64,000 bases of DNA. Source: a virus (Duplodnaviria > Heunggongvirae > Uroviricota > Caudoviricetes). A model generated the notes under the pieces. The model searched no databases, had not been told where the DNA came from, and was given only the letters and a program-made list of their open reading frames with translations. Within the stretch, counting starts at the first letter, position 1; each line of letters begins with the position of its first letter. The DNA is taken from IMG/VR virus record IMGVR_UViG_3300042868_014220; one strand, given 5' to 3'. The position numbers and the translations under genes were made by a program. Positions 7,705 through 20,411 of this stretch are shown here, one piece after another.

Positions 7705-8181
7705 TTATCTTATTTTCCAGGCTCCGTTGATGTGTTTCTTCATTTGTTTACCATCGGCAAGGTTTCCGATTACAACACCATCTTTAATGGTAAACGCATG
7801 GCGATTAACAGTAACAATATAGGTCCCTACAGGATATCTTTTAATAAATGAACCCGTGGTTGTCCTCCTAAGAGTTTTCATACCTTTTACGGTTACATAA
7901 TATAACATTGTATTATGTTCTTCGGTAACGATTTCAATACTTTTACCGTTAATTTGTTCGTTGTTTTTAGATAACAAGTTTATTGTGCTTGCAAATCTAT
8001 AAACACCTTTTTTATTGTTTCTACAGAATTTTTCTTTTGTGAATTTGTGTGCAGAATCATAATCCATATCAGCTGCGGTTGCGATTGCTCTTACAACACA
8101 ATCATTATCTTCAGATTTTGCAATTACAGATTCTGATATTCCTTTGATTACTTCTCTTGATGATATATATCCCTTATTCAT
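7705..8181 (-). CDS. Hypothetical protein
   Basis: Protein-like ORF between tRNA-Ser and ferritin gene. Confidence 0.5.
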   Translation of the reverse strand: MNKGYISSREVIKGISESVIAKSEDNDCVVRAIATAADMDYDSAHKFTKEKFCRNNKKGVYRFASTINLLSKNNEQINGKSIEIVTEEHNTMLYYVTVKGMKTLRRTTTGSFIKRYPVGTYIVTVNRHAFTIKDGVVIGNLADGKQMKKHINGAWKIR

Positions 8182-8269
8182 GGTACAAAGATAAAGAAAA
8201 GATTTTAAACCGCAAAAAAAAATCCCACCGAATACTCAGAGGGATTTTACTTTAATGTATTTGTGTAGA

Positions 8270-8857: not shown

Positions 8858-8890
8858 AACTATAAATACTACGAGTAATGAAAAAAATTG

Positions 8891-8962
8891 TAGCGACGGA
8901 AGGAATCGAACCTTCGACTTCTCGGATATGAGCCAAGTGTTCTTCCACTGAACTACATCGCC
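8891..8962 (-). tRNA. tRNA-Met (CAT)
   Basis: Cloverleaf parsed manually; anticodon loop CTCATAT; T-loop TTCGATT. Confidence 0.75.
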
Positions 8963-8969
8963 ATTTTTG

Positions 8970-9041
8970 TGGTTTTGAAAGGACTCGAACCCTCACTAAA
9001 AAATCCGTAATTTTACGTGCTATCCGTTACACCACAAAACC
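8970..9041 (-). tRNA. tRNA-Arg (ACG)
   Basis: Anticodon loop TTACGGA; T-arm GAGGG-TTCGAGT-CCTTT. Confidence 0.7.
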
Positions 9042-9045
9042 ATTG

Positions 9046-9117
9046 TTATCCCTTAAGGATTCGAACCTCAATTCATTGGCCCAAAACCAATTGTCCTGCC
9101 AATTAGACGAAGGGATA
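9046..9117 (-). tRNA. tRNA-Gln (TTG)
   Basis: Acceptor TATCCCT/AGGGATA; anticodon loop TTTTGGG. Confidence 0.75.
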
Positions 9118-9124
9118 ATTTTTG

Positions 9125-9206
9125 TGGGAGCAGTAGGACTCGAACCTACGAACTCAAAAGAGGGGACATTTACAGTGTCCTGCCATTGCCGCTAGACGAT
9201 ACTCCC
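9125..9206 (-). tRNA. tRNA-Tyr (GTA), type II (bacterial-type long variable arm)
   Basis: Acceptor GGGAGTA/TGCTCCC; anticodon stem-loop GGACA-CTGTAAA-TGTCC; 13-nt variable arm. Confidence 0.75.
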
Positions 9207-9279
9207 AAATAAGTTAAACTAACACCCTGACTCCTTTCGAACTTTGGGGGCTCGTATCATTCATTCTGTGTTAGTTTTG

Positions 9280-9352
9280 CACGCCTGATAGGAATCGAAC
9301 CTATAACACCTGGTTTTGGAGACCAGTGCTCTACCAATTGAGCTACAGACGC
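9280..9352 (-). tRNA. tRNA-Trp (CCA)
   Basis: Anticodon stem-loop CTGGT-CTCCAAA-ACCAG; canonical D-arm TAGCTCAATTGGTAGAGC. Confidence 0.8.
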
Positions 9353-9359
9353 GTATTTG

Positions 9360-9431
9360 AGGTCGGTACAGGAATTGAACCTGTGTAGATAGTTTTGCAG
9401 ACTACCGCCTAAACCACTCGACCAACCGACC
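9360..9431 (-). tRNA. tRNA-Cys (GCA), U73 discriminator
   Basis: Perfect acceptor GGTCGGT/ACCGACC; anticodon loop CTGCAAA. Confidence 0.7.
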
Positions 9432-9437
9432 TTATTG

Positions 9438-9512
9438 TGACCCCGCCAGGATTCGAACCTGGGACTCCCTAGTTAAAAGCTAGGTGCTCTAAACCAACTG
9501 AGCTACGAAGTC
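9438..9512 (-). tRNA. tRNA-Lys (TTT)
   Basis: Anticodon stem-loop CCTAG-CTTTTAA-CTAGG. Confidence 0.8.
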
Positions 9513-9518
9513 AAATTG

Positions 9519-9590
9519 TTGTCACGATAGGATTTGAACCTATGACCGCTTCCGTATCAGGGAAGAACTCTACCGCTGAGTTACGTGACA
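9519..9590 (-). tRNA. tRNA-Ile (GAT)
   Basis: Anticodon stem-loop CTTCC-CTGATAC-GGAAG. Confidence 0.8.
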
Positions 9591-9721
9591 ATTTATTAAA
9601 ATCAATTGTGGGTTTCCATTTCCACTCCGACAACTTCAGTCAATGTGATTTGTGGTAGTGTACCTCTACCTTAGACACTTCGGAACGACCCACTGTATGT
9701 GGTCTGTCGTTAATTGATTAG

Positions 9722-9803
9722 TGGTTAGAACAGGATTCGAACCTGTGACAATACAACCTTTACAGGGTGACATAACCTCTTTGCCATTACGTATTACCTA
9801 ACC
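9722..9803 (-). tRNA. Type II tRNA, anticodon probably GTA (second Tyr-like) with imperfect anticodon stem
   Basis: Acceptor GGTTAGG/TCTAACC, T-arm ACAGG-TTCGAAT-CCTGT, loop CTGTAAA, long variable region. Confidence 0.45.
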
Positions 9804-9808
9804 ATTTG

Positions 9809-9892
9809 CGGAAGCGAAGGGAATCGAACCCCCAATACGTTGCAGTACTACTTGTTTTCAAGACAAGCTCCTCGTCCATTCGGACCACTTCC
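9809..9892 (-). tRNA. tRNA-Ser (TGA), type II
   Basis: Anticodon stem-loop CTTGT-CTTGAAA-ACAAG; long variable arm. Confidence 0.75.
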
Positions 9893-9898
9893 AATTTG

Positions 9899-9974
9899 GG
9901 TGACTAACGGGAGTCGAACCCGTGACCTCTTGAACCACAATCAAGTGCTCTAAACCAACTGAGCTATAGCCAAC
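9899..9974 (-). tRNA. tRNA-His (GTG) with encoded G-1
   Basis: Anticodon stem-loop CTTGA-TTGTGGT-TCAAG; extra 5' G opposite C73. Confidence 0.75.
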
Positions 9975-9980
9975 ATGTTT

Positions 9981-10073
9981 GCTGATTAAAAAGGATTCGA
10001 ACCTTAATCCTACTCCCTATTGTCTTCGGTTAAGAATATCGTCGGGTGGAGTGCTCCATTACACTATAATCAA
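9981..10073 (-). tRNA. Atypical elongated tRNA-like gene (93 nt) with ~20-nt insert in anticodon/variable region
   Basis: Acceptor TTGATTA/TAATCAG, D-arm GTGT-AATGGA-GCAC, T-loop TTCGAAT intact; no canonical anticodon arm found. Confidence 0.35.
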
Positions 10074-10122
10074 TCGGATGCTTCGAATCATCCATTCTCA
10101 AGGTAATTAATCTTGAGTTTTG

Positions 10123-10232
10123 CAGTCAGGACAGGATTCGAACCTGTATGTGATTTGACATGCTTTTTTATAATGCTTCCTAAATCACTTATCCGCCTTC
10201 AGTTTTTGCGTCTACCATTCCGCCACCTAACT
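10123..10232 (-). tRNA. tRNA-Leu-like gene with ~27-nt insertion (110 nt)
   Basis: Acceptor AGTTAGG/CCTGACT, Leu-type D-arm TGGCGGAATGGTAGACGC, T-arm ACAGG-TTCGAAT-CCTGT; internal GTGATTT...AAATCAC hairpin. Confidence 0.4.
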
Positions 10233-10293
10233 AAATTCTAATTCTATACAGTCACAACATGGGACCCTATGAATTAGTAACAGTCTCACCTCG

Positions 10294-10384
10294 TAGTCAG
10301 TAGAGGATTCGAACCTCCCATCTATGTGGCTACCGTATTTGTGGTGACTCGAACACCGCCTCTAAGACTGACCAACATCCGACT
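10294..10384 (-). other. tRNA-like element with two T-arm modules (double-T-arm), no anticodon arm
   Basis: Acceptor AGTCGGA/ACTGACT; hairpins GGTG-TTCGAGT-CACC and GGAGG-TTCGAAT-CCTCT. Confidence 0.35.
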
Positions 10385-10511
10385 ATTTTGAAAAGATATA
10401 TGGTGTCGCTCCACAGCCTCTACAACCTAAGGATTTTGCTCAGAAGGGATATTATCCGCTCCGTACTTATCCGAGTTGCTAACCCTGTCCTTTCGAGACA
10501 GATATCTTTTG

Positions 10512-10584
10512 TGGTACGAACTGGAATCGAACCAGTGGCACAAGGATTTTCAGTCCTTTGCTCTACCTACTGAGCTACCATACC
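10512..10584 (-). tRNA. tRNA-Phe (GAA)
   Basis: Anticodon stem-loop AAGGA-CTGAAAA-TCCTT; D-arm TAGCTCAGTAGGTAGAGC. Confidence 0.8.
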
Positions 10585-10591
10585 ATTTTTG

Positions 10592-10663
10592 TAGCCCCTA
10601 CGGGAATCGAACCCGTCTTTCTAGAATGAAAATCTAACGTCCTAACCGATAGACGAAAGGGCC
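10592..10663 (-). tRNA. tRNA-Glu (TTC)
   Basis: Acceptor GGCCCTT/AAGGGCC... anticodon loop TTTTCAT. Confidence 0.7.
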
Positions 10664-10797
10664 AAATTGACTTTACCTTACAAAGTCTAAGTAGGTTTAG
10701 TTGCGGTCTCTCCTACCTGATGAAGGCTCTTTTTGTGATTAATCATCACAGGCACGTTATTCATCATTTTAACACGAAGCCAACGTGTTGCTCATCG

Positions 10798-10863
10798 TAG
10801 TCAATACAGGATTCGAACCTGCCCTTGGTAATTACTCCCGTGGTGCCGCTCCACTAATTGACT
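10798..10863 (-). other. Short (66 nt) degenerate tRNA-like element
   Basis: Acceptor AGTCAAT/ATTGACT, D-arm GTGG-AGCGGCA-CCAC, T-arm GCAGG-TTCGAAT-CCTGT; anticodon arm absent. Confidence 0.3.
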
Positions 10864-10891
10864 TCTCCAAGATAATTAGTCTTGAAGATTG

Positions 10892-10966
10892 TAGTCCCTG
10901 TAGGATTCGAACCTACGACCTATTGTTTGTAAGACAACCGCTCTAAACCAACTGAGCTAAGGGACT
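10892..10966 (-). tRNA. tRNA-Val (TAC)
   Basis: Anticodon stem-loop GTTGT-CTTACAA-ACAAT; perfect acceptor AGTCCCT/AGGGACT. Confidence 0.8.
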
Positions 10967-11039
10967 GTTTTTTCTAATATGTCAAAGAACCATTTTCTAA
11001 ATCAACGATACAAAGGTAATGTTATTTTCGATATAAACA

Positions 11040-11080
11040 AAAAAACCCCAAACTTTATTTACAAGTTCGGGGTTTTTATA
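11040..11080. terminator. Intrinsic terminator hairpin (aaaaccccaaacttt...aagttcggggttttt)
   Basis: GC-rich inverted repeat CCCCGAACTT/AAGTTCGGGG-like with T-run. Confidence 0.5.
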
Positions 11081-11279
11081 TTTTATTATTTCTAACTAAT
11101 TTTAACCTATTGTATTTACCGAACTCCAATTTCGCACATTGCGATACCAGCTACAAACTTCTTGTTGCTTAATAAACGACGACTTATGTTCCATTGATGT
11201 TCTCATTTTCTAATAATTATAACAATAATAGGAAAAGTTTCTTATTTGTCAAATATATTTTTCAGAGTATTTATAAAAG

Positions 11280-11702
11280 ATGAGAAATTTAAGACAAATT
11301 ATTAAAGAGGAATTATTATTAGAGAAAAAAATTGGTCAGATTAGAGCCTCTCTTGAAATTGCGTTTTTATTTGATGTTATTAGAACAACTCATGCACATA
11401 TTAGAACGACTAGAACAGGTATTGAAAATTACGAAAAAAGAGATATTGGAAATGACGAAATCAATGAACTTATTAATATGTCAAAAAGTGAAATTGCTGA
11501 AAAAATAGCAATGAGAGAAATTGTTCATGAACAAGACTTTGTAATAAAATCTTTAAGATGGCAGTTGGCATTAGCAATTAGAGCTATTCACGTAGATGGA
11601 ACTTATTGGGAATTACTTGTTAAGACTGTTTTCAGAGAATCCAAAGATAATCCATTTAAAGTTGGTGAGGGTCAATTAGTCATTTATTTAGATTTTAGAT
11701 AA
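11280..11702 (+). CDS. Hypothetical protein with N-terminal IIKEEL motif variant
   Basis: Promoter-like TTATTTGTCAAAT upstream; protein-like ORF. Confidence 0.5.
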   Translation: MRNLRQIIKEELLLEKKIGQIRASLEIAFLFDVIRTTHAHIRTTRTGIENYEKRDIGNDEINELINMSKSEIAEKIAMREIVHEQDFVIKSLRWQLALAIRAIHVDGTYWELLVKTVFRESKDNPFKVGEGQLVIYLDFR

Positions 11703-11890
11703 AAAAAGGATAACACTTGTATCTGAATCGTTCCCGTGTTACCCTTGGTACCCATGTGATTAAGCTTGTGTATCTGAATCGTTCTCCTCAATCACAGTAC
11801 AAAGATACAACAAAATTCCGAACCACAAAATTTATTCTATAATTTTTTTAATTGTCTTTAATGAATTGATTACTATCTTCTATTTATAGG

Positions 11891-12907
11891 TTGATGAAAA
11901 AAATTTTATTTATTCTAAAACAAAGAAACATCTATTCAAATGGCGTTTATTCAAACGTTGACAGTGGATTACAAAACTCGGCGAGATTTGTAAATGATAT
12001 GTTGGTTAAAAACAAAGTTGACTCTACACTAGTACAAGTGGTAGATAATAACGAAATCGACAAATATTGTACTATACACAAACCTGATGTTGTAATCATT
12101 GAAGCAATTTGGGTTGTTCCAAGTAAATTTGAGGTTTTAAAGAAACTACACCCGAATATCACTTGGATAATTAGATTACATTCTGAGTTACCATTTTTGG
12201 CAAACGAAGGTGTTGCAATGGAATGGTTAAAAGAATATGTAAAATACGATAACGTATTTATCGGTTCAAATTCAATTTATTTGATTGATGCCTTGTCTCC
12301 GTATTTGGGAACCAACATCATCTATCTACCAAATTATTATAAAGTAACAAGTAAAGAATCTGTAATAAAGGAAAATAATTATGGTGAGATAAATGTTGGA
12401 ATCTTTGGAGCAATAAGACCAATGAAAAATGCATTAACCCAAGCGGTTGCTGCAATCAATTATGCTAATATGAATAATCTAAAATTAAGATTACATATAA
12501 ACACGGCAAGAGTTGAACAAAAGGGTGAAAACGTATTGAAAAATTTAAGAGCTTTGTTTGTTGATACAAGACACGAATTAGTTGAACATGCATGGTTGAA
12601 ACATGAGGATTTTGTTAAATTGGTTGGGACAATGGATATCTGTTTACAAGTATCAATATCCGAAACCTACAATATTGTTGCTGCCGATGTAGTTAATCAA
12701 AGAGTTCCTGTTGTAACCACAGATGAAATTCCATTTGTTAATAGTTTTAGTTCTGTTAATTCTAACAAAAATGTTGAAAACATTATCTACACTATGAAGT
12801 TTAATCTAAGATTCAAAACTGTGTTAACCATCTTAAATAAGTTCTATTTGTTTGTAAATTCAAAAAGAGCTAAAATGGTTTGGATGAATTTCATCCATAA
12901 TTTTTAG
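11891..12907 (+). CDS. Hypothetical protein (338 aa)
   Basis: Long ORF; no motif recognised with confidence. Confidence 0.5.
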   Translation: MMKKILFILKQRNIYSNGVYSNVDSGLQNSARFVNDMLVKNKVDSTLVQVVDNNEIDKYCTIHKPDVVIIEAIWVVPSKFEVLKKLHPNITWIIRLHSELPFLANEGVAMEWLKEYVKYDNVFIGSNSIYLIDALSPYLGTNIIYLPNYYKVTSKESVIKENNYGEINVGIFGAIRPMKNALTQAVAAINYANMNNLKLRLHINTARVEQKGENVLKNLRALFVDTRHELVEHAWLKHEDFVKLVGTMDICLQVSISETYNIVAADVVNQRVPVVTTDEIPFVNSFSSVNSNKNVENIIYTMKFNLRFKTVLTILNKFYLFVNSKRAKMVWMNFIHNF

Positions 12908-12988
12908 TACCTTGGGTCGGACTCGAACCGACACGACTTTCGCCACAAGTTCCTAAGACTTGAGTGTCTACCATTTCACCACCAAGGC
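12908..12988 (-). tRNA. tRNA-Leu (TAG), type II
   Basis: D-arm TGGTGAAATGGTAGACAC, anticodon stem-loop CAAGT-CTTAGGA-ACTTG, long variable arm. Confidence 0.75.
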
Positions 12989-12991
12989 ATT

Positions 12992-13083
12992 TCATTATCG
13001 CTTCAGCCACATCGGGAAAGACGCCTCCCCCGCGTTGTTTAAGTGTATATCTTGCGTCGTATCTCACTGAGCTACGATAATGA
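12992..13083 (-). other. tRNA-like element with 9-bp acceptor stem and non-canonical T-loop (possible pseudo-tRNA)
   Basis: TCATTATCG...CGATAATGA terminal helix; internal TAGCTCAGTGAGA D-arm-like segment. Confidence 0.3.
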
Positions 13084-13087
13084 TTTG

Positions 13088-13161
13088 TAGTCCCAGTAGG
13101 ACTCGAACCTACGACCTACGGTTTAGAAAACCGTTGCTCTATCCAGTTGAGCTATGGGACC
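13088..13161 (-). tRNA. tRNA-Arg (TCT)
   Basis: Anticodon stem-loop ACGGT-TTTCTAA-ACCGT. Confidence 0.8.
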
Positions 13162-13168
13162 ATTTTTG

Positions 13169-13248
13169 TACCTGGGGAGAGACTCGAACTCTCATTCACA
13201 AGGAACTGAGGCTTAAACCCAGCGTGTCTACCATTTCACCACCCAGGC
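13169..13248 (-). tRNA. tRNA-Leu (TAA), type II
   Basis: Anticodon stem-loop CTGGG-TTTAAGC-CTCAG; D-arm TGGTGAAATGGTAGACAC. Confidence 0.7.
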
Positions 13249-13250
13249 GA

Positions 13251-14024
13251 CTATAGTTTAAAACTCTCTTCAAACAATGTATGACTTTCGTTTTCTTCTG
13301 TATTCATTGTATGTAGAAGTAATATGGTTGAATTGTTAAAATTAAAAATAAACCTACCATCAGAACCTTCGTTGATTTCCCAACCACCAAAATGAGATTC
13401 TAATTCTCTATAACACCAATCTTCAATTCCTGCAGGAACAGCATCACCTGTTTCCTCAAATGAACCTTCAATATATCCAGAATCACCACCACCATTATAT
13501 GGTATAGTCAAAATACCATCTTCAGGAACTTCAATCTCTTTCATATCTGTTTCCATCCAACGCTCAAATCTTTCGATATCATCAGCAGCATCATATTCAA
13601 CTGAGTTTTCATTACCTCTACCATAATAAGAAAACCAATATACAACAGTAATTTCTCTATTAGGACAATCAATTTCAAGGTCAATTTTTTGATAATTTAC
13701 CATATCAATATCCACAAAATCTATTGATTCAAACTTACCTGATTTTATAACCTTGTCCATAATTTTTTGTAAAATTGGAGTTAGATTTTCAGGTATGTCT
13801 GCTCTATAGTTATTTTCAAAATGAGTAACGTATTTCCATTTAATATCATCTGATGTTAGTTCTTGTTGTTGAATATCTAATTCAAAACCTACCACACCAA
13901 CACTCATACCTAATGAACCAAGGTAGTTACATATCCTATTAAGATATTTTTTTTCGTCTAATGTTAAAATTCCATTCATAATTATAAATATCAGTCTTCT
14001 ATTTTCATTGTCCTTAGCATCCAC
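13251..14024 (-). CDS. Hypothetical acidic protein
   Basis: Protein-like ORF. Confidence 0.5.
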   Translation of the reverse strand: MDAKDNENRRLIFIIMNGILTLDEKKYLNRICNYLGSLGMSVGVVGFELDIQQQELTSDDIKWKYVTHFENNYRADIPENLTPILQKIMDKVIKSGKFESIDFVDIDMVNYQKIDLEIDCPNREITVVYWFSYYGRGNENSVEYDAADDIERFERWMETDMKEIEVPEDGILTIPYNGGGDSGYIEGSFEETGDAVPAGIEDWCYRELESHFGGWEINEGSDGRFIFNFNNSTILLLHTMNTEENESHTLFEESFKL

Positions 14025-14338
14025 TGAGGTCTTTTATTCTCTAATAAATTGTCAATCCACTCCTTTGCGGATGGGATATAGTTATTACAATCTTCTCTGA
14101 CGTGTTGTTCACCGACATAACGAGTGTAAACTATTTTCCCATCACTATTGGTAAATTCGGACCCAAATTTCTTCTCCATCTCAAAAATACCTTCACTATG
14201 GTGTCTAAACATTCTGTGTAAAGAATCCGCAATCCAACCTTTTGTTTCATCCAACCATTCGTGTAAATGGATGTAATCTTCAGGTTTTCCACCAAACTTT
14301 TTAACCGAACTTTTTGCGTGTATGTTAGGATGTGCCAT
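13991..14338 (-). CDS. Hypothetical His-rich protein
   Basis: ORF; possible metal-binding His residues. Confidence 0.45.
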   Translation of the reverse strand: MAHPNIHAKSSVKKFGGKPEDYIHLHEWLDETKGWIADSLHRMFRHHSEGIFEMEKKFGSEFTNSDGKIVYTRYVGEQHVREDCNNYIPSAKEWIDNLLENKRPQWMLRTMKIED

Positions 14339-14345
14339 AGTTTAT

Positions 14346-14801
14346 TTAATAATCTTTTCCTTTGTGAAGTAAGTAAGTTGCGTAATATTTTAAGTCCGTT
14401 CCTTGATAATAAATTACAACATAATAATCTAAATCTCCTGAGGGAATATAATTAATCCATATCTTGTCTCCGCACTCATTCACAGCTGAAATTAATCTTA
14501 AACAATCACGAGTACTATCTTCATCCCACTCTTCAATAATTGAAAACTTCATAACAATACCTGCCCTTGTCTTTGAAAACGTAAATGAAGAGTCAGTTAG
14601 GTTAACGTGAAAGTGGTCATATTCCCATTTAGTTTTTTTCTTCGGTTTTCTAATCTTAACATTTTCTGCATCTTCAATCATTTTTTTTGAATTTTTGAAT
14701 TGGTATCTGTATATGGAATCCGCTTCTAAATTCTGACCATTTGCTTCGGACAATCCGAAGATAAATAGGAACATAAGTCCTATGATAAATTTTAACTTCA
14801 T
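14346..14801 (-). CDS. Secreted/lipoprotein-like hypothetical (start set at MKLKFIIGLMFLF signal peptide)
   Basis: Upstream part of track ORF overlaps tRNA-Ala; internal Met followed by hydrophobic signal. Confidence 0.5.
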   Translation of the reverse strand: MKLKFIIGLMFLFIFGLSEANGQNLEADSIYRYQFKNSKKMIEDAENVKIRKPKKKTKWEYDHFHVNLTDSSFTFSKTRAGIVMKFSIIEEWDEDSTRDCLRLISAVNECGDKIWINYIPSGDLDYYVVIYYQGTDLKYYATYLLHKGKDY

Positions 14802-14815
14802 ATTATTTTTTTTTG

Positions 14816-14890
14816 TGGAGACAATGGGTATCGAACCCACCTCAAAAACATTGCAAGTGTTTTTCGCCAAGCCTTGGTACATTTGCCCCC
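14816..14890 (-). tRNA. tRNA-Ala (TGC) with G3:U70
   Basis: Acceptor GGGGGCA/TGTCTCC with G3-U70 wobble; anticodon stem-loop AAACA-CTTGCAA-TGTTT; atypical D-arm. Confidence 0.6.
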
Positions 14891-15077
14891 GTTGTTTCTT
14901 AAATGGAATCGCCATTTGTTGCTTTGTAAATTGCAATAACCAAACCAACCACCCAACCAACAATAACTAAAGTGATTAGGACATCTTTCATTGATAATTT
15001 TCTTAACATATTCATACTATTTTTTTATTTAGGTCACAAAGATACTATAAAATTCTTAATTACCAAATTTATTTTTG

Positions 15078-15160
15078 AGCCTCCTGACGGATTCGAACCG
15101 CCGCGTCCTTACGAAACCTGATTACAAGTCAGGTGCAATCAACCACTATGCGAAGGAGGC
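15078..15160 (-). tRNA. Type II-length tRNA with apparent anticodon TGT (Thr) - identity ambiguous
   Basis: Acceptor GCCTCCT/AGGAGGC, anticodon stem-loop CCTGA-CTTGTAA-TCAGG, ~14-nt variable arm, T-arm GGCGG-TTCGAAT-CCGTC. Confidence 0.45.
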
Positions 15161-15169
15161 ATGTTTTGG

Positions 15170-15241
15170 CGGTCTATGCGGGAGTCGAACCCGCCTCACT
15201 ACCGTGACAAGGTAGCATCCTAGCCGATGAACGAATAGACC
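15170..15241 (-). tRNA. tRNA-Asp (GTC), CCA encoded (15167-15169)
   Basis: Anticodon stem-loop CTACC-TTGTCAC-GGTAG; acceptor GGTCTAT/ATAGACC. Confidence 0.75.
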
Positions 15242-15464
15242 AAATTTCCCCACCCTGAGATTATGGATGAGTGGATTTTAACGGTTTAGTTTTCTTAAAA
15301 ACAAACACATTAGTGTCTTACCACATGAAACTATAAATCAACACTACTGGGAGGAATTGTGTCAGTTCCTTGGTCCCAAGACCCCCTCTGTAAAATCGTG
15401 GAGGGCTACAACTACATCATTGTTAAGAAACGATGCCAAATCTGTGAGTATCTCTTACTCATTG

Positions 15465-15538
15465 AGCGAGTAGTCGGTCTCGAACCGACCCTATTTCACA
15501 TTGGAAGTGTGATGCCATACCAACTAGGCGATACTCGC
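15465..15538 (-). tRNA. tRNA-Gly (TCC)
   Basis: Acceptor GCGAGTA/TACTCGC; anticodon stem-loop TCACA-CTTCCAA-TGTGA. Confidence 0.7.
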
Positions 15539-15973
15539 AATTTTTAATTTAAAATGTAAATCTCTATGACAATTAGAACACAAAATATCACACTTATCAA
15601 TTTCATTTAATATTTTTGTCTTATTTCCTCTCCTAATTAAAGTAGAAACATCAATATCTTTTTCCTCAGGATTTCTGTGATGAAAATCTAAAACCCAATA
15701 TCTATTCTCACCACACACCTCACATTTTAATGTTTTTTTATAATCCGTAAACCATTCAATTATTGATTGTGTAAATACTTTTGCTTTATCAATATATTTT
15801 TTTTTATTTTTTTCATAGTGTTTTTTTCTATAATCACTTTGACATTTTCTACAGATATGTTGAAACATTTTTTCTTTTCTATCATATCTCGATGCGAAAT
15901 GGATATCATCCAACGGCAATTCTAACTCACATTTAGGACATATTTTTATTTTCATATCTATAAATACTTCCAA
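15524..15973 (-). CDS. HNH homing endonuclease
   Basis: Zn-finger CPKC...CRKC plus LDFHHRNPEEK...CSNCHRDLH HNH motif. Confidence 0.75.
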   Translation of the reverse strand: MEVFIDMKIKICPKCELELPLDDIHFASRYDRKEKMFQHICRKCQSDYRKKHYEKNKKKYIDKAKVFTQSIIEWFTDYKKTLKCEVCGENRYWVLDFHHRNPEEKDIDVSTLIRRGNKTKILNEIDKCDILCSNCHRDLHFKLKIASIA

Positions 15974-16006
15974 ATTATAAAAAAACTTGGAAGTGTTAAT
16001 TATTTG

Positions 16007-16090
16007 CTGGCACGGTAGGATTCGAACCTACGGTGTGGTTGCCCAGTCAGGTTAACAGCCTGATGCTCTCGGCCTCTAAGCGACGTACCA
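16007..16090 (-). tRNA. Type II-length tRNA with apparent anticodon GTT (Asn) - identity ambiguous
   Basis: Acceptor TGGTACG/CGTGCCA, anticodon stem-loop TCAGG-CTGTTAA-CCTGA, ~14-nt variable region. Confidence 0.45.
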
Positions 16091-16097
16091 ATATTTG

Positions 16098-16170
16098 TCG
16101 AAAGTGTTAGATTCGAACTACGCCCCAACCTCCCAAAGGTTATGTGCTACCTGACTACACCACACTCTCG
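16098..16170 (-). tRNA. tRNA-Pro (TGG), weak T-stem
   Basis: Anticodon stem-loop TAACC-TTTGGGA-GGTTG; T-loop TTCGAAT. Confidence 0.55.
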
Positions 16171-16419
16171 AGTTAATTTTCCAATATTTCAAAGAACACT
16201 ACAAAGATAACAATTAAAACCATATAAAACAAAAAACCCCAAACTTTTTATGTTCAGGGTTTCTAATTTTTGGCTTTTATATTTCCGTTATTTTAGGTCT
16301 GAACATTTGCATAGATTCCCTGTACCGTCATTTGTCGGTGCTAAAGTCGCTCTATCAAGTGTATTCAAACTTTTCATAATGTCTTTATAAATATAACCAA
16401 TTATTTAAAAAAGTCAACC

Positions 16420-16683
16420 TTAAACGTATTTTTCAAACATTTTTTCCAAAGTTTTTTCTTCTTCAGGTATTAATCGGTAATAACAACCCGCTAATTTACT
16501 CATTTTTTCAAGGAACATACTTTCCATTAGTCCCATTTTTTTAGATTCTGAAGCTTCAACTAAAGGTTTGCTTAAGTAACCGTGAAATACTAATTCATCG
16601 ATGAGTTCATCGATTTCTTGTTTGTTACATGCTGATACGAAATCATCCACATCAACCTCAATGTAATTGTTAAATTCTGGCAT
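16420..16683 (-). CDS. Hypothetical protein
   Basis: ORF. Confidence 0.5.
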   Translation of the reverse strand: MPEFNNYIEVDVDDFVSACNKQEIDELIDELVFHGYLSKPLVEASESKKMGLMESMFLEKMSKLAGCYYRLIPEEEKTLEKMFEKYV

Positions 16684-16747
16684 ATTTTTATTTAATTTTA
16701 TTTTACAATAATATGGATAAATTTTTTGTTTTCCAAATTTTATTCAT

Positions 16748-17002
16748 TTATTTCTTTTTAAATTGTTCAAACCATTCTTTTATATAATCTGATATGTATG
16801 AATTTTGATTAACAGAATATTCAAATGAATCAATTTTATCTTTTAATTCTTCTGTAAATACTTCTATATCACTATACATCATTTGTTCTTGCCATTCAGC
16901 ACCAGCTTTAAAATCTGCAATTGGATATTCTTTTTCAACACCCATTGGATATTGCATTTTTACATAGTATTTAGCAGCCTCTTCTATTGTTTCTTCTTTC
17001 AT
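16748..17002 (-). CDS. ETIEEAA-domain protein (tandem paralog 1)
   Basis: MKEETIEEAAKYY...EQFKKK; paralogous to 17005-17235 and C-terminus of 17238-18137. Confidence 0.55.
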   Translation of the reverse strand: MKEETIEEAAKYYVKMQYPMGVEKEYPIADFKAGAEWQEQMMYSDIEVFTEELKDKIDSFEYSVNQNSYISDYIKEWFEQFKKK

Positions 17003-17004
17003 AA

Positions 17005-17235
17005 CTATTTCTTTTTATATTGTTGGATATGAGATTTATCTAATTTGTTTACTGAGTATTTTTGTGCAAATCTTAACATATCTTCCTCACTATACATTCT
17101 TTCTGCTTGCCATTTAGTACCTTTAATAAATCCTAATTTAAAAGGTCTAATATCTTTTTTTGATATAATAGGATTTTCTTTTTGAAAATTATTAAACAAT
17201 CTTTCAGCAGCCTCTTCTATTGTTTCTTCTTTCAT
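17005..17235 (-). CDS. ETIEEAA-domain protein (tandem paralog 2)
   Basis: MKEETIEEAAERLF...QQYKKK. Confidence 0.55.
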   Translation of the reverse strand: MKEETIEEAAERLFNNFQKENPIISKKDIRPFKLGFIKGTKWQAERMYSEEDMLRFAQKYSVNKLDKSHIQQYKKK

Positions 17236-17237
17236 AA

Positions 17238-18137
17238 TTATTTCTTTTTAAATTGTTCAAACCATTTATTAAATACTCCTATAAGAATATTATTTCTACC
17301 CATAGCATAAGCATCTTTAGCTATTACTTCAACTTCTTCCTCACTATACATTCTTTCTTTTTGCCAATTAGTACCTTCTAAAAACATATCTTTCCAATAT
17401 TCACTATCTTGCGGTGGATGGTATGGATACTTTTCATATAATAATTTAGTAGCCGCTTCTTCAATTGTTTCTTGTAAAGGTTCACAATCACAAGTTATAG
17501 TATGACCACAATAACATTTAATTTGTTTTTCTTGTGGAACCACAGCACTTATTCTTGTACCACTTAACTGATAAAACTCAGAGACTTGTAATAAGTAACC
17601 GGCTTGTTCTGATGTTAAGTTTTCAAATCTTATATGTTTATTGTGAAACAGAACATCTATAGTGGCTTTATCATTTATTACAATATCTTTGCAAGGATTA
17701 GGTTCTTCTTGTGGAATGATGATTTTGTAACCTAAATTCATCGGTTCTTCTAAATCAAATCCCCAATTACTATTTGGAATAGAGTCAATATTAATTGTAT
17801 CACAACTTGGATTCTTTACAAACCATTCTAAATATTCTTCATCAATCTCTTGAACACCATCTTTGATAAGGTCTGGGTCTGTTGTTAAAATGATTTTTTT
17901 ATCAAAACTTTGTGGCTGTAATAACAATCCATTTTTTGGATGATGTTTAATTATTTTTTTAGTATTAACTTGAACAAACCAATCTCCTCCTTTAATTTCT
18001 TCATCAGAAGTGATGTAGATGTGAAATCCTTTAAATTCCCCGTATCTAATTTTTTCTATAATGGAAAAGTGTAATCCATTTTTTGACTCGAATATACCTG
18101 TTGGTTTATCTGTTGGTATTAAATGTATGTTTTTCAT
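17238..18137 (-). CDS. Hypothetical protein with C-terminal ETIEEAA domain (paralog 3)
   Basis: C-terminus ...QETIEEAATKLLYEKYPY...WFEQFKKK. Confidence 0.55.
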   Translation of the reverse strand: MKNIHLIPTDKPTGIFESKNGLHFSIIEKIRYGEFKGFHIYITSDEEIKGGDWFVQVNTKKIIKHHPKNGLLLQPQSFDKKIILTTDPDLIKDGVQEIDEEYLEWFVKNPSCDTINIDSIPNSNWGFDLEEPMNLGYKIIIPQEEPNPCKDIVINDKATIDVLFHNKHIRFENLTSEQAGYLLQVSEFYQLSGTRISAVVPQEKQIKCYCGHTITCDCEPLQETIEEAATKLLYEKYPYHPPQDSEYWKDMFLEGTNWQKERMYSEEEVEVIAKDAYAMGRNNILIGVFNKWFEQFKKK

Positions 18138-18198
18138 ATTAAATTATTGTTTAGCAAAGATACATTCTTTATTTTTATCCACCAAATTTATTTTATTG

Positions 18199-18288
18199 TA
18201 GTCAGGACAGGATTCGAACCTATAATCCGTTCTATCACCGTTTCTAGGGGATTCGAACCCCGATAGATAGGACAACCGTCACCTGACT
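18199..18288 (-). other. tRNA-like element with two T-arm modules (double-T-arm), shares acceptor AGTCAGG/CCTGACT with Leu-like genes
   Basis: Hairpins CGGGG-TTCGAAT-CCCCT and ATAGG-TTCGAAT-CCTGT; no D-arm or anticodon arm. Confidence 0.35.
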
Positions 18289-18294
18289 ATATTT

Positions 18295-18558
18295 TTACGT
18301 TACAATTGTGTTATGAATTTCATTGAAGGTGTATCTCTTTTTTACATATTCCACATCCTCCTTAAAAATATCCTCCACTGTTTTTATTTTTTTGTAAATC
18401 TCAGGACACATATACTTTTTACCCAAAGAATGACCTTCAACTAAATTCCAAGATTTTTCTCTAGACCACCAACTTTTAAATTTCCATTCATAGACGGAAT
18501 ATTGATAACAATTGGCTATGGTGTTATCGACAATCGTTAATTTATATATTTTATCCAT
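18295..18558 (-). CDS. Hypothetical protein
   Basis: ORF. Confidence 0.45.
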   Translation of the reverse strand: MDKIYKLTIVDNTIANCYQYSVYEWKFKSWWSREKSWNLVEGHSLGKKYMCPEIYKKIKTVEDIFKEDVEYVKKRYTFNEIHNTIVT

Positions 18559-18572
18559 ATTTTTCTTTTTTG

Positions 18573-18702
18573 CAGTCAGGACAGGACTCGAACCTGTATA
18601 TCAACCTCTGCGACAGAGCAATTCTTATTATATGGTGCGACCCATTTTTATTATTGTTGTAGTTGACTATCTCTGTAGCGTCTACCATTCCGCCACCTGA
18701 CT
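18573..18702 (-). tRNA. tRNA-Leu-like gene carrying ~43-nt insertion in anticodon loop region (130 nt)
   Basis: Acceptor AGTCAGG/CCTGACT, Leu-type D-arm TGGCGGAATGGTAGACGC, anticodon stem ACAGAG/CTCTGT enclosing 43 nt, variable arm, T-arm ACAGG-TTCGAGT-CCTGT. Confidence 0.45.
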
Positions 18703-18850
18703 ATGTTATTTTATAACTTTAACGTATTGTGTATGAAACCAATGAGGTTCGTTTCTATGTACGTAAAAGCCGTAAAGTAATAATGATGTAAAAAATATCA
18801 TCAATACAACAACTTTTAATTTATCTTTTGTGTCTGTTTTCATAATACTT

Positions 18851-19069
18851 TTAATAGGTTTTAAGTTTGATTGTATCTCCCTCAAAATATTGTTTACTTG
18901 AAAAGATTACACCTGTTTGTGTTGTATCTTGTAAGTTTTTCACCTCGTATTTGTATTGACCGTCACTAACGGTTTGACAACACAATACTAAAAATAATTT
19001 AATTGCTATTATTGTTTTCATTTGTGAGTACAAAAGTAACACTATTAAATCAATTTTCCAAATGGTCAA
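18851..19069 (-). CDS. Small secreted hypothetical protein
   Basis: Short ORF with hydrophobic N-terminus. Confidence 0.35.
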   Translation of the reverse strand: MTIWKIDLIVLLLYSQMKTIIAIKLFLVLCCQTVSDGQYKYEVKNLQDTTQTGVIFSSKQYFEGDTIKLKTY

Positions 19070-19105
19070 AAAAAAAACTCTTAAAAAGAGTTTTTATTTA
19101 ATATT

Positions 19106-19699
19106 TTACCAAGTCCTACATGCCCAATATCTTGGTTTCCATCTTGGACCAGGAGTATCACATTTCATACGAGCTCTAAATGATTTTCTTCTTGCAGGGT
19201 TATTCTTTTTAATTGTCATTCTTTCACCGTGAGCGGATTTTCCACCAAAACCAAAGTTTACCTTAACAACCTTACCTTTATCATTTTTAACATATACCTT
19301 GGATTTCTTAACATCACCTTGCATTATTTTTCCCAATTGGACTTTTCTACCCTGATATTCCGCCTCAGTCAATAAGTCACCAACAACAAAGTTGGTCTCT
19401 TCCACCGAACCAAATTCATCCTCATATAAAGTTTCATTTTTGGGTTTAATACCCTTCTTCTTCATATTGATGGCAATTGCCGCTTGTTGTGCGGGACTTG
19501 AAGCTTCATCTGTTTCTCCAACAGATTCTTTTTTAACACAATTTGGATATTTTTTACCAAACATAGTTTTCATTCCCTTTTGAGTATAACCTTTCCAACA
19601 AGCTTCAGTGATTTCAGTTTCCTTACCTTTTTGTTCTTGGAGAACACGATTAACCAAATTAATTAAATCAGATTCAGTTAGTTTTATTATTTTTCCCAT
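19106..19699 (-). CDS. Hypothetical protein with N-terminal KLTESDL motif and basic Cys/Trp C-terminus
   Basis: MGKIIKLTESDLINLVNRVLQEQ... Confidence 0.55.
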   Translation of the reverse strand: MGKIIKLTESDLINLVNRVLQEQKGKETEITEACWKGYTQKGMKTMFGKKYPNCVKKESVGETDEASSPAQQAAIAINMKKKGIKPKNETLYEDEFGSVEETNFVVGDLLTEAEYQGRKVQLGKIMQGDVKKSKVYVKNDKGKVVKVNFGFGGKSAHGERMTIKKNNPARRKSFRARMKCDTPGPRWKPRYWACRTW

Positions 19700-19737
19700 A
19701 AAATTGTTATTTAATAATAAATATCCTGATTAGATAA

Positions 19738-20046
19738 TTATAACTCTACTCCGTCTCTAATCTCTTCAACTATATTTGATTTACGTTGTTGTATCATCAT
19801 TAATAACTTATCAAGATTTTCGGATTCCTCAATGGTATATTCATTTTCTATCTTGTAAATTTGACCATCATTACCATCTAAATGTAATATGATACCTTTT
19901 GTTGTTGTAATCGTTGGAGAATAATATTCTACAAGATTTTTTGTATCCATCACGGTGGTCCCACCACACGATTGAACTTCTCCTTTGTTTACACTACCAT
20001 ACTTGGTAAAATGTATGTATTTTGACCCTGGTTTAAAATTTGACAT
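19738..20046 (-). CDS. Hypothetical protein (start trimmed to MMSNFKPG)
   Basis: ORF; upstream extension overlaps next gene. Confidence 0.45.
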   Translation of the reverse strand: MSNFKPGSKYIHFTKYGSVNKGEVQSCGGTTVMDTKNLVEYYSPTITTTKGIILHLDGNDGQIYKIENEYTIEESENLDKLLMMIQQRKSNIVEEIRDGVEL

Positions 20047-20050
20047 CATA

Positions 20051-20319
20051 TTATTTATCTGTTTTATGTATTGAATTTTTGCAATTTCCTTTGTGTGTTC
20101 CCCAAGCACTATTAGTCCCTCCATTTACCTCAATATACTCACAACCGTCTAATGTGTAATTTTGGTAATATCTCTCGTATAGTTCAATAGACGTATCAAG
20201 TTCCTTAATCTCAATTGGTTTTGACACCGTGTTATCATTCTTGTCTTTTTTATCACCGATAAAATCATCACAACTATACATGAGGATTAAAACCGATAGA
20301 ATCATTATTCCGTATTTCA
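20051..20319 (-). CDS. Small lipoprotein (start trimmed to MKYGIMILSVLILMYSC)
   Basis: Signal peptide with lipobox; track ORF N-extension is antisense of tRNA-like element. Confidence 0.5.
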
Positions 20320-20334
20320 TATTTTCTTTATTTG

Positions 20335-20411
20335 TGGGCCTAGAGGGATTTGAACCCCCGTGTAACCAGCTACGCTTTCTACGCATTATGAGTGCGAGGC
20401 GATATAGGCCC
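20335..20411 (-). other. Degenerate tRNA-like element (intact acceptor and T-arm, possible CAT anticodon loop, D-arm missing)
   Basis: Acceptor GGGCCTA/TAGGCCC, T-arm GGGGG-TTCAAAT-CCCTC. Confidence 0.3.

Follow-up and report, generated by a model that had tools for sequence, protein, structure and literature searches.

We analysed a 64,000 nt stretch of a Caudoviricetes contig (IMG/VR record IMGVR_UViG_3300042868_014220), hereafter called the window, to which all coordinates refer. It carries an island of tRNA genes on the minus strand, genes for putative RNA-repair enzymes on the plus strand and a group of tRNA-like elements that have the ends of a tRNA but an abnormal body. A first-pass annotation, made from the sequence alone, had placed a tRNA island at 8891-20411 and described it as co-located with RNA-repair enzymes. 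Numbers with a leading L (e.g. L007, L163) denote loci of related phages, which are stretches of IMG/VR contigs.

A minus-strand island with tRNAs for all 20 amino acids

tRNAs were called with ARAGORN and independently with the Rfam tRNA model RF00005 (gathering threshold 29 bits), which was also run in a permissive scan. ARAGORN finds 23 tRNAs in the window, which together cover all 20 amino acids; they span 7560-16170 and are all encoded on the minus strand. The proposed island is real, as Rfam concurs on 22 of them with 38-75 bits. The single tRNA below the gathering score is tRNA-Ala, whose D arm is aberrant. The canonical set shows the 7-bp acceptor, D arm, 7-nt anticodon loop, T arm and Rfam score of a cloverleaf tRNA. 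Moreover, the T-loop motif GGTTCRANTCC occurs 28 times in the window (0.19 expected), with 27 copies on the minus strand within 8.9-20.4 kb. The tRNAs are listed below; each was found by both ARAGORN and Rfam unless stated otherwise.

7560-7644, minus, tRNA-Ser(GCT), 55.6 bits in Rfam
8890-8962, minus, tRNA-Met(CAT), elongator type
8969-9041, minus, tRNA-Arg(ACG)
9045-9117, minus, tRNA-Gln(TTG)
9124-9206, minus, tRNA-Tyr(GTA)
9279-9352, minus, tRNA-Trp(CCA)
9359-9431, minus, tRNA-Cys(GCA)
9437-9512, minus, tRNA-Lys(TTT)
9518-9590, minus, tRNA-Ile(GAT)
9808-9893, minus, tRNA-Ser(TGA)
9898-9974, minus, tRNA-His(GTG), encoded G-1 at 9974
10511-10584, minus, tRNA-Phe(GAA)
10591-10663, minus, tRNA-Glu(TTC)
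10891-10966, minus, tRNA-Val(TAC), first gene of the 8.9-11.0 kb array
12907-12988, minus, tRNA-Leu(TAG)
13087-13161, minus, tRNA-Arg(TCT)
13168-13248, minus, tRNA-Leu(TAA)
14815-14890, minus, tRNA-Ala(TGC), G3:U70, aberrant D arm, 5' end corrected, ARAGORN only
15077-15160, minus, tRNA-Thr(TGT), long variable arm
15167-15241, minus, tRNA-Asp(GTC), CCA encoded
15464-15538, minus, tRNA-Gly(TCC)
16006-16090, minus, tRNA-Asn(GTT), long variable arm
16097-16170, minus, tRNA-Pro(TGG)

All 21 isotypes read by hand in the first-pass annotation were reproduced. It had passed over tRNA-Thr(TGT) and tRNA-Asn(GTT), and tRNA-Ser(GCT) at 7560-7644 lies outside the range it gave. Its finer readings hold as well: the gene of tRNA-His includes G-1 (g at 9974, facing C73), tRNA-Asp has an encoded CCA, and tRNA-Ala has the G3:U70 pair once its 5' end, which ARAGORN places 4 nt too late, is moved upstream (acceptor GGGGGCA/TGTCTCC). 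The 18-20 tRNA or tRNA-like genes counted by eye in 8.9-11.0 kb resolve into 18, namely 13 canonical tRNAs and five tRNA-like elements. Further tRNAs had been proposed at 18.2-18.7 and 20.3 kb; these items are tRNA-like and not canonical. Beyond the ARAGORN set, Rfam matches 20335-20411 and, in the permissive scan, a 110-nt segment at 10123-10232.

The D arm of tRNA-Ala is replaced by a tight CCAAG/CTTGG hairpin, a form which is kept in relatives and there often missed by ARAGORN. Long, class-II-like variable arms occur sporadically in relatives (Asn 10 of 61, Thr 4 of 70; also in Cys, Trp, Gly, Gln and Pro).

The island was compared across 80 loci out of 576 IMG/VR relatives that encode a DUF6915 protein, a marker gene located inside the island. 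It recurs in these loci with up to 27 tRNAs in largely conserved order, and is common to hundreds of uncultivated freshwater phage contigs.

The anticodons serve every codon box but AUA. tRNAs with U34 read the four-codon and NNR boxes and tRNAs with G34 the NNY boxes, to which ACG, CAT and CCA are added. Codon statistics were taken from 65 long open reading frames (ORFs) of the window, whose G+C content at third codon positions is 0.22. In many boxes the most frequent codon is the Watson-Crick partner of a U34 tRNA (GAA 0.80, AAA 0.84, CAA 0.88, TTA 0.54, AGA 0.65), and GCA, CCA, ACA and TCA likewise lead their boxes and match U34 tRNAs. ATA accounts for 2.2% of codons. Taken together, the tRNAs appear to form a complete minimal decoding set that suits the AT-rich codons of the phage itself, and not a targeted supplement. 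CCA is encoded in tRNA-Asp only and nearly all tRNAs are trailed by N73-C-A-A. Hence host 3' processing and CCA addition would be needed for all but one of them.

Besides tRNAs, the island contains the following features (MFE, minimum free energy).

9207-9278, minus, structured spacer S2 between tRNA-Tyr and tRNA-Trp, 10-bp closing stem, MFE z-score -2.8
13251-14024, minus, DUF6878 protein, Pfam 3e-10
13991-14338, minus, DUF6915 protein, highly conserved island marker, Pfam 1.8e-38
15524-15973, minus, HNH endonuclease, phrog_2255, 5e-36

The first-pass annotation had spoken of interleaved HNH endonucleases; one is found in its range, a second at 21889-22473 outside of it. The TTG start of the former overlaps tRNA-Gly, so that the true start is probably later. 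Copies of spacer S2 with 93-97% identity are present in L010, L027 and L031. Three further array spacers on the minus strand (9591-9721, 10374-10510 and 10664-10797) are 130-137 nt long, contain no tRNA-like element and match no Rfam family. The two flanking ones are closed by long stems in the MFE fold, the third reaches a z-score of -2.5; copies of two of them with ~80% identity occur in single relatives (L008; L080 and L068). Close to the island lie a class I/II aminotransferase gene (6261-7517, minus) and, directly downstream of the tRNA array, a gene for a ferritin-like protein (8270-8857, minus). PDB searches with the single sequences of DUF6915 and DUF6878 were uninformative.

Genes for putative RNA healing and sealing enzymes

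Five plus-strand genes had been assigned to RNA repair from their motifs, and all five match the respective families above curated Pfam cut-offs.

3568-4161, plus, HAD_SAK_2 phosphatase, DHDGV motif, Pfam PF18143 1.1e-17, 65.1 bits vs 27.5
28877-29551, plus, metallophosphoesterase, Pfam Metallophos 1.5e-6, 29.3 bits vs 21.5
30714-31103, plus, stand-alone Pnk-like P-loop kinase of 129 aa, AAA_33 2e-10
32513-33724, plus, Rnl1-family RNA ligase, GTG start at 32513, Pfam RNA_lig_T4_1 (PF09511) 2e-17, 64 bits vs 28.3
46012-46686, plus, second metallophosphoesterase, Metallophos_2 4e-11, 43.6 bits

The ligase matches T4 Rnl1 (2c5u) in phmmer with an E-value of 1.8e-10. As predicted from the sequence, the catalytic motifs are present in this alignment (window/T4): EKMDGS/TKEDGS (I), FEII/FEFV (III), EGFVV/EGYVA (IV) and MKVKGEEY/FKIKSDWY (V). 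It extends, with low confidence, to T4 residue 320 of 375; in Rnl1 a helical domain at the C-terminus confers tRNA specificity.

The kinase-like protein was likewise assigned correctly, by its AAA_33 match and by a fold closest to T4 Pnk. Its P-loop reads GLPGSGKT, and D30, N73, R103 and H104 are invariant in a profile built from 14 relatives. In T4 Pnk the catalytic Asp and Arg residues are D35, R38 and R126. The best long PDB matches of this profile are the kinase domains of Clostridium thermocellum Pnkp (CthPnkp) and T4 Pnk (E 0.005-0.04), T4 Pnk 1ly1 and 1ltq being matched at E 0.018-0.036. When the AlphaFold2 model (pLDDT 83.5) was compared by Foldseek, the nine best hits were T4 Pnk structures, starting at E 4.8e-6 (1ly1), with TM-scores of 0.68-0.72 on the query.

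The phosphoesterase at 28877-29551 has the five motifs of a calcineurin-like metallophosphoesterase, among them SDPHYNH, LGDWS, GNHDHH and HGHCH, which correspond to DxH, GD, GNHD and GHxH. In the HAD protein, FLDHDGV at residues 5-11 is the DxDG nucleophile motif. According to its Pfam description, HAD_SAK_2 is the HAD domain of 'Swiss Army Knife' RNA repair proteins. Single-sequence PDB searches of kinase, phosphoesterase and HAD protein were uninformative. Judged by domains and motifs, the window encodes the predicted enzymes for the healing and sealing of broken RNA, with their catalytic motifs intact.

The neighbourhood of the repair genes was compared in a separate set of 80 loci anchored on relatives of the ligase. 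The phosphoesterase and the kinase are each present in 55 of the 80. The closest relatives have the three genes in the order phosphoesterase-kinase-ligase, whereas the ligase comes first in more distant ones (ligase-phosphoesterase-kinase). As the neighbourhood survives differing gene order, functional linkage in a shared pathway is suggested, and not merely an inherited order. The three genes are not contiguous in the window: an ORF of unknown function (29564-30511) separates phosphoesterase and kinase, and a Band_7/SPFH gene (31584-32432, plus) separates kinase and ligase. The former and 42554-43576 (both plus) match phrog_17056; closer relatives have phosphoesterase and kinase contiguous.

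Co-location of island and repair enzymes, as initially proposed, applies in a loose sense: the ligase module is 13-20 kb away and the HAD gene 4 kb away on the other side, but the arrangement is conserved. Six contigs occur in both locus sets, and on these, as in the window, ligase and DUF6915 are separated by ~20 kb. Of the 80 island loci, 38 also contain the HAD gene.

In the window and its two closest relatives the HAD_SAK_2 gene is adjoined by a gene for a 515-aa protein (1967-3514, plus). It has 943 database homologues, all of them unnamed, and an invariant SCKYGxGTxWC motif. No Pfam domain was found in it and its AlphaFold2 model (pLDDT 78.7, pTM 0.44) has no PDB fold match at E <0.05.

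tRNA-like elements with constant ends and variable cores

To find tRNA-like elements, sequence not called by ARAGORN was scanned for a T arm accompanied by an acceptor that can pair. The window contains eight, all on the minus strand, with a 7-bp acceptor and a canonical T arm around an abnormal body.

9722-9803, minus, element F, GUAA-tetraloop hairpin in the place of the anticodon arm (T-arm/acceptor scan; Rfam 20.2 bits)
9982-10072, minus, element E, 8 nt upstream of tRNA-His (T-arm/acceptor scan, locus comparison)
10123-10232, minus, element L1, AGTTAGG/CCTGACT acceptor, Leu-type D arm, ~59-nt core, no anticodon arm (Rfam 36.3 bits)
10294-10373, minus, element C, two T-arm-like hairpins (T-arm/acceptor scan)
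10798-10863, minus, element D, 66 nt, acceptor, D-like arm and T arm, no anticodon arm (scan, fold)
18199-18288, minus, element B, AGTCAGG/CCTGACT acceptor, two T-arm-like hairpins (T-arm/acceptor scan)
18573-18702, minus, element A, AGTCAGG/CCTGACT acceptor, Leu-type D arm, ~75-nt core (T-arm/acceptor scan)
20335-20411, minus, element G, rearranged and tRNA-Ile2-like, anticodon loop CUCAUAA, no normal D arm (Rfam 34.6 bits)

They lack the full cloverleaf of the canonical tRNAs and none was called by ARAGORN. The Rfam threshold is passed by L1, despite a large insertion, and by G, despite the missing D arm; F stays below it and the remaining elements are not reported by Rfam. As whole molecules the elements have MFE z-scores of -0.5 to -1.8.

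Element G stands apart. It keeps acceptor, anticodon loop and T arm of a tRNA, and a D-like segment follows the anticodon arm. Relatives carry at this position a canonical tRNA closely resembling E. coli ileX (tRNA-Ile2, anticodon CAU). In the three known variants of G, the anticodon stem and a 3-bp pairing (CGC/GCG vs CGG/CCG) have changed in a compensatory manner. Together with tRNA-Thr, tRNA-Asn and tRNA-Ala, this element belongs to a group of structurally deviant tRNAs which are, beside the tRNA-like family, among the most interesting results of this analysis.

Across the window and the 80 island loci the search returned 180 elements. With an acceptor within one mismatch of AGTCAGG/CCTGACT, 99 of these (64 unique sequences) form one family. 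The first-pass annotation had noticed tRNA-like items, but not that they include a distinct family with constant ends and variable cores. The T arm ACAGGTTCGAATCCTGT is usual among members, and many also have the Leu-type D arm GGCGGAATTGGTAGACGC. Most of them carry A as discriminator, whereas elements L1 and A of the window carry G. Pairwise identity across the family is 90% in the first 9 nt and 84% in the last 26 nt. The cores (18-118 nt) are as alike as shuffled sequence (0.457 vs 0.457). Within orthologous clusters the 5' end is 82%, the core 68% and the 3' end 92% identical, and hence the ends are seemingly under stronger constraint than the cores. The exact 3'-end 23-mer CAGGTTCGAATCCTGTCCTGACT is present in at least 120 IMG/VR contigs, with up to seven copies per 5 kb among the matches listed. 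Most tRNA-like elements, moreover, share the N73-CAA trailer of the true tRNAs.

Single members illustrate how the ends are combined with different cores. Element E has conserved ends and a different core in L165, L007, L014, L018 and L011. Element A has an 83% identical ortholog in L017, where the apical hairpin is kept through different sequence. In some members from relatives the anticodon arm is swapped for a GNRA- or UUCG-tetraloop hairpin. No full-length counterpart of F, C, D or B was found in the 80 island loci, C being represented there by chimeras of its 5' part (L163, L165).

The elements adjoin small ORFs of the same strand with gaps of 6-30 nt. In the window element A is followed on the minus strand, after 14 nt, by an 87-aa ORF, after 6 nt more by element B, and after a further 61 nt by a 299-aa ORF. 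In L018 the interval between tRNA-Phe and tRNA-His has grown to 5.4 kb, in which at least 11 elements alternate with ATG-initiated ORFs of 54-115 aa. These start 16-60 nt past one element and stop 6-10 nt short of the next. Most ORFs of the window at 16.2-20.6 kb have no counterpart in relatives.

The two closest relatives, L163 and L165, were found via the 515-aa ORF (92% and 86% aa identity). Two chimeras were observed in the Phe-His interval of these loci: the 5' part of element C joined to the 3' end of E (L163), and the same 5' part joined to a 3' end of the L1 type (L165). Both breakpoints are located in the T loop, so that T-loop recombination creates and destroys tRNA-like elements.

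Three ideas on the elements and their cores were rejected. Guide-like function is not supported, as BLAST of all cores against 2.8 Mb of DNA (window and loci) returned orthologous elements only and no antisense targets. General structure of the cores was dismissed at a mean MFE z-score of -0.29 with 5% below -2. A Y RNA with a Ro partner was discarded as well: the YrlA model RF02553 gives 19.5-20.7 bits (threshold 69) and overlaps true tRNAs, and no TROVE match was found. Element A has no match in GenBank phages, a distant-mode search included, and an exact 37-mer of element B gave none in IMG/VR. No description of such a tRNA-like family was found in the published literature, and we know of no phage or bacterial example.

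A second tRNA-like family, absent from the window, occurs in relatives (L051 15098-15267, L076 15747-15897, L032 12339-12497 and others). It has a TGTAAGG acceptor, a length of 144-171 nt and a conserved CCCTCCTGTCTCGGGGG segment. An internal helix shows clear compensatory changes (ATTGATAA/TTATCAAT, ACAAATAA/TTATTTGT, GTAAGGA/TCCTTTAC).

Transcription signals, putative host and relatives

Two sites upstream of tRNA genes combine a strong terminator-like hairpin with a promoter-like motif.

11011-11077, minus, terminator-like hairpin (11077-11041), then the promoter-like -7 motif TACCTTTG (11018-11011), upstream of tRNA-Val
16202-16264, minus, terminator-like hairpin (16264-16232), then the motif TATCTTTG (16209-16202), upstream of tRNA-Pro

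Both motifs conform to TAnnTTTG, the -7 element of Bacteroidota promoters, and their distance to the tRNA gene is 45 nt for tRNA-Val and 32 nt for tRNA-Pro. The window contains 138 copies (108 ± 9.5 expected). Twelve ORFs of 50 aa or more have the motif 2-5 nt ahead of their ATG, 10 of them with a gap of exactly 4 nt; a control with the reversed motif gives three. Among these ORFs are the phosphoesterase, the kinase and the second phosphoesterase. The same arrangement precedes the GTG at 32513, which is therefore the likely start of the ligase. The order TA(T/C)NTTTG, 4 nt, start codon is seen at 28865-28880, 30702-30717, 32501-32516, 46000-46015 and eight other sites. With the start codon so near the -7 element, leaderless or nearly leaderless mRNAs are implied.

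Among cellular proteins the phage ClpP has its closest homologues exclusively in Bacteroidota (46-49% identity), thyA matches Flavobacterium phages, the window has 27-38% G+C, and related contigs come from lake and river metagenomes. Based on these sequence features together with the promoter motifs, the window most likely stems from a large freshwater phage of a Bacteroidota host.

No close DNA relative was found among GenBank phages, megablast of 7.5-21 and 28-40 kb yielding a tRNA-sized hit and thyA only. In a metagenome scan the closest DUF6915 match has 94% aa identity, and matches are mostly on short contigs. The nearest cultured homologues of the ligase (32% identity) and of DUF6915 are encoded by Streptomyces phages of the Stanwilliamsviridae. 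Within the clade DUF6915 is conserved with 81-94% aa identity, the ligase with 56-67%. DUF6915 is also found in Bacillus (Tsamsa-like), Sinorhizobium and Ralstonia jumbo phages; it lies in a tRNA island in Bmoc, not in Tsamsa.

Further genes concern protein quality control. A full-length transfer-messenger RNA (tmRNA) is located at 987-1377 (plus; Rfam 65.8 bits vs 47) with G3:U70 and encoded CCA, and was not called by ARAGORN. Its tag, read from the alignment as GNVLNKMALVGLVKQDELVSVA followed by a stop, is like the ARAGORN tag of relative L032 (GNTFAKLAALGLTKEAGVTVA). ClpP is encoded at 22873-23553 (plus; NCBIfam PRK14514, 2.5e-70). Close relatives add a ClpB/ClpC-like double AAA+ ATPase and a UVR-domain protein (L163 3385-5987). 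tmRNA and Clp genes look like a phage-borne tagging and proteolysis set. The thymidylate synthase (36420-37559, plus) has 379 aa, and its PHROG match covers only profile positions 29-307 of 335, which suggests an insertion. The DNA similarity of thyA to Flavobacterium phage immuto consists of three pieces.

Discussion

The genes, motifs, folds, conservation and synteny described above are observations. For the substrates of the enzymes, the direction of any conflict with the host and a role of the tRNA-like elements we infer the following. As the best joint explanation, with a probability of about 0.55, the window would combine three linked layers of translation support: the tRNA set, a split repair kit and tRNA-shaped RNAs.

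The 23 canonical tRNAs and the rearranged tRNA-Ile2-like RNA would be transcribed as multi-tRNA precursors from TAnnTTTG-type promoters, and matured by RNase P, a 3' processing nuclease and the CCA-adding enzyme of the host. On a broken RNA the metallophosphoesterase, with the HAD_SAK_2 phosphatase encoded elsewhere in the window, would remove the 2',3'-cyclic or 3' phosphate, the stand-alone Pnk-like kinase would phosphorylate the 5'-OH and the Rnl1-type ligase would reseal the break. The phage could thereby keep translating when host tRNAs are depleted or cut, with tRNAs of its own and by repair of cleaved ones.

Such a function has precedents. Passages in PMC10264068 and PMC1484252 describe how T4 Pnkp and Rnl1 repair tRNA-Lys cut by PrrC, and RNA repair by T4 Pnkp/Rnl1 and bacterial Pnkp is also treated in part of PMC3592404. 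According to a section of PMC2190708, the metallophosphoesterase domain of CthPnkp is a 2',3'-cyclic phosphodiesterase. Phage tRNAs have already been proposed as an escape from tRNA-targeting defences (PMC10264068). By analogy with T4 and PrrC, the counter-defence against host anticodon nucleases suggested in the first-pass annotation is plausible. Codon compensation relative to the host, which it had also named, is not especially favoured.

Several points weigh against the joint explanation. A Bacteroidota host would itself be AT-rich, and this weakens the argument from codon compensation. The repair module is not adjacent to the island. tRNA as the repair substrate and a host nuclease as the cause of the break are postulated by analogy. 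T4 Rnl1 has a second role in tail-fibre attachment. With 67.5 bits, the ligase of the window falls short of the equivalog cut-off of NCBIfam TIGR02308 (242 bits) and thus is a distant member of the Rnl1 family, not an equivalog. The similarity of the kinase to solved polynucleotide kinases is marginal and it has no fused phosphatase, while no informative PDB sequence match was obtained for the phosphoesterase. As to the third layer, core stability is ordinary, as stated above, and the element complement between tRNA-Phe and tRNA-His differs in each of the two closest relatives by gain, loss and fusion; both would equally suit debris under weak selection.

The phage might instead seek translational autonomy only. 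The island would then make up for a host that the phage shuts down or degrades, or meet a different codon demand, and the repair enzymes would serve general RNA or DNA end repair or, like T4 gp63, tail-fibre attachment, with no relation to anticodon nucleases. This fits a tRNA set that is complete and minimal in decoding, not limited to a few nuclease targets, as well as the tmRNA and ClpP genes of the same genome and the 13-20 kb between repair genes and island. Moreover, some GenBank entries of the nearest cultured ligase homologues read 'RNA ligase and tail fiber protein attachment catalyst'. We nevertheless regard this alternative as rather unlikely. A phosphoesterase-kinase-ligase neighbourhood that outlasts rearrangement is the signature of a heal-and-seal pathway and not of a lone assembly chaperone, and the only well-studied phage pathway with this enzyme set, that of T4, repairs cleaved tRNA.

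For the tRNA-like elements we prefer, tentatively, a twofold role. The conserved minihelix could mark sites for RNase P cleavage and 3'-end processing and thereby punctuate the polycistronic RNAs in which tRNAs and small ORFs are transcribed together; as a DNA repeat it could drive the turnover of cassettes. It is possible, though we would not put it more strongly, that the AGTCAGG/CCTGACT elements and sister families such as that of E are undescribed phage RNA modules: tRNA-shaped, without an anticodon, with cores free to vary and a minihelix held constant for processing by RNase P, 3'-end nucleases and the CCA-adding enzyme of the host. They would punctuate and stabilise polycistronic transcripts of tRNAs and small accessory genes and serve as portable recombination sites for the shuffling of such gene cassettes in a hyperplastic region, some perhaps acting as decoys for host defences directed at tRNAs.

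A serious rival, in our view still doubtful, is that the elements are debris, i.e. decaying or recombinant tRNA-Leu-like copies left by T-loop recombination and homing-endonuclease activity where evolution is fast. The C-E and C-L1 chimeras are what such a process would leave, as are the elements F, C, D and B without full-length counterpart, cores that resemble each other no more than shuffled sequence and are not unusually stable, and surrounding ORFs that are mostly orphans. Debris would hardly keep its ends intact while cores are replaced, with the 3' end ahead of the core even within clusters, nor spread an exact 3'-end 23-mer in multiple copies over so many contigs. Stable GNRA- or UUCG-capped hairpins in the place of the anticodon arm of several members, F included, and the apical hairpin of A that is kept with different sequence in the L017 ortholog also argue against debris.

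Alternatively the elements might be decoys that soak up host factors binding the elbow or acceptor of tRNAs, possibly chargeable by way of the Leu-type D arm and A73, or scaffolds for a variable functional core. Constant acceptor, T arm and often Leu-type D arm, the mostly A discriminator and the tetraloop-capped replacements of the anticodon arm would suit both, and so would the TGTAAGG family of relatives with compensatory changes in its internal helix. Against this stand the lack of any antisense or target match of a core in 2.8 Mb of related phage DNA, cores that are not unusually structured overall, the G discriminator of L1 and A, the missing Ro/TROVE partner and YrlA scores far below threshold. 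We consider decoys or scaffolds unlikely.

Very improbable, finally, are intron-containing tRNA genes served by a phage tRNA splicing pathway: ARAGORN in intron mode does read element A as tRNA-Ile(AAT) with a 45-nt intron, and the enzyme set resembles the domains of fungal Trl1 (passages in PMC10946426), but this intron would sit at 34/35 and not 37/38 with an unlikely anticodon, L1 and G yield no ARAGORN intron model, the family has no conserved anticodon stem-loop, no splicing endonuclease is seen among the ORFs scanned, and the repair module also occurs in relatives without tRNA-like elements nearby.

With T4 the window shares a one-strand tRNA cluster with a homing endonuclease nearby, a ligase of the Rnl1 family, a kinase of Pnk fold and the logic of healing before sealing. 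It differs by 23 tRNAs for 20 amino acids where T4 has eight tRNAs. The kinase of 129 aa consists of the kinase domain only, without the fused C-terminal DxDxT HAD 3'-phosphatase; the candidate for 3' healing beside it is a metallophosphoesterase, and HAD_SAK_2 is ~25 kb away. The ligase, in addition, is far below the T4 RnlA equivalog cut-off. CthPnkp comprises the same three chemistries in one polypeptide, its kinase domain is the top long PDB profile match of the window kinase, and the phosphoesterase motifs are intact in the window. In contrast to CthPnkp, the window has three separate ORFs split by other genes, and the ligase is of Rnl1 type and not a Pnkp ligase domain. No methyltransferase that could correspond to Hen1, the partner of bacterial Pnkp, was found among the window ORFs scanned.

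The Stanwilliamsviridae (Bmoc, Paradiddles, Coruscant) provide the nearest cultured ligase and DUF6915 homologues, and Bmoc has DUF6915 inside a long one-strand tRNA island with HNH endonucleases. However, these phages have an unrelated host phylum and virion lineage, the Ro-like protein of their islands was not found in the window, and the AGTCAGG family has no match in GenBank phages.

tRNA-like processing signals are known from plant mitochondrial t-elements, mitochondrial tRNA punctuation, MALAT1 mascRNA and the TMERs of murine gammaherpesvirus 68 (MHV68). In these cases as in the window, non-decoding tRNA shapes abut coding or RNA units, and RNase P or RNase Z could set the ends. In contrast, the present family is constant also in sequence, multi-copy and hypervariable in its cores. 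PeSL are mobile regulatory cassettes, composed of an early promoter and a stem-loop, in hyperplastic regions of T4-type phages. Here, as with PeSL, short conserved repeats lie on either side of small orphan ORFs that vary, and cassettes are reshuffled when the repeats recombine. The repeat of the window is a tRNA-like minihelix instead of an early promoter plus stem-loop. Plant mitochondrial t-elements are dealt with in passages of PMC1920247.

Taken together, island and repair genes are real, conserved and part of a known strategy, for which T4 is the paradigm and into which tRNA-rich Streptomyces phages fit as well. Variant features are the complete minimal tRNA set, the split kinase/metallophosphoesterase/ligase with a separate HAD_SAK_2, and the Bacteroidota-type setting. 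The new part is the tRNA-like family.

The reason why phages carry tRNAs has been debated for decades. A clade that pairs a minimal decoding set with a split repair module, tmRNA and ClpP is a good natural test of whether tRNAs and tRNA repair are two arms against tRNA-targeting immunity. It extends the T4 paradigm to abundant freshwater phages which probably infect Bacteroidota, and the Pnk-like kinase and the metallophosphoesterase are compact candidates for new RNA end-healing enzymes. If processed as proposed, the tRNA-like family would provide mitochondrial tRNA punctuation with a first counterpart in phages. In that case it would also be a natural version of the engineered 'tRNA scaffold' for RNA expression and would explain the turnover of accessory-gene cassettes in tRNA islands.

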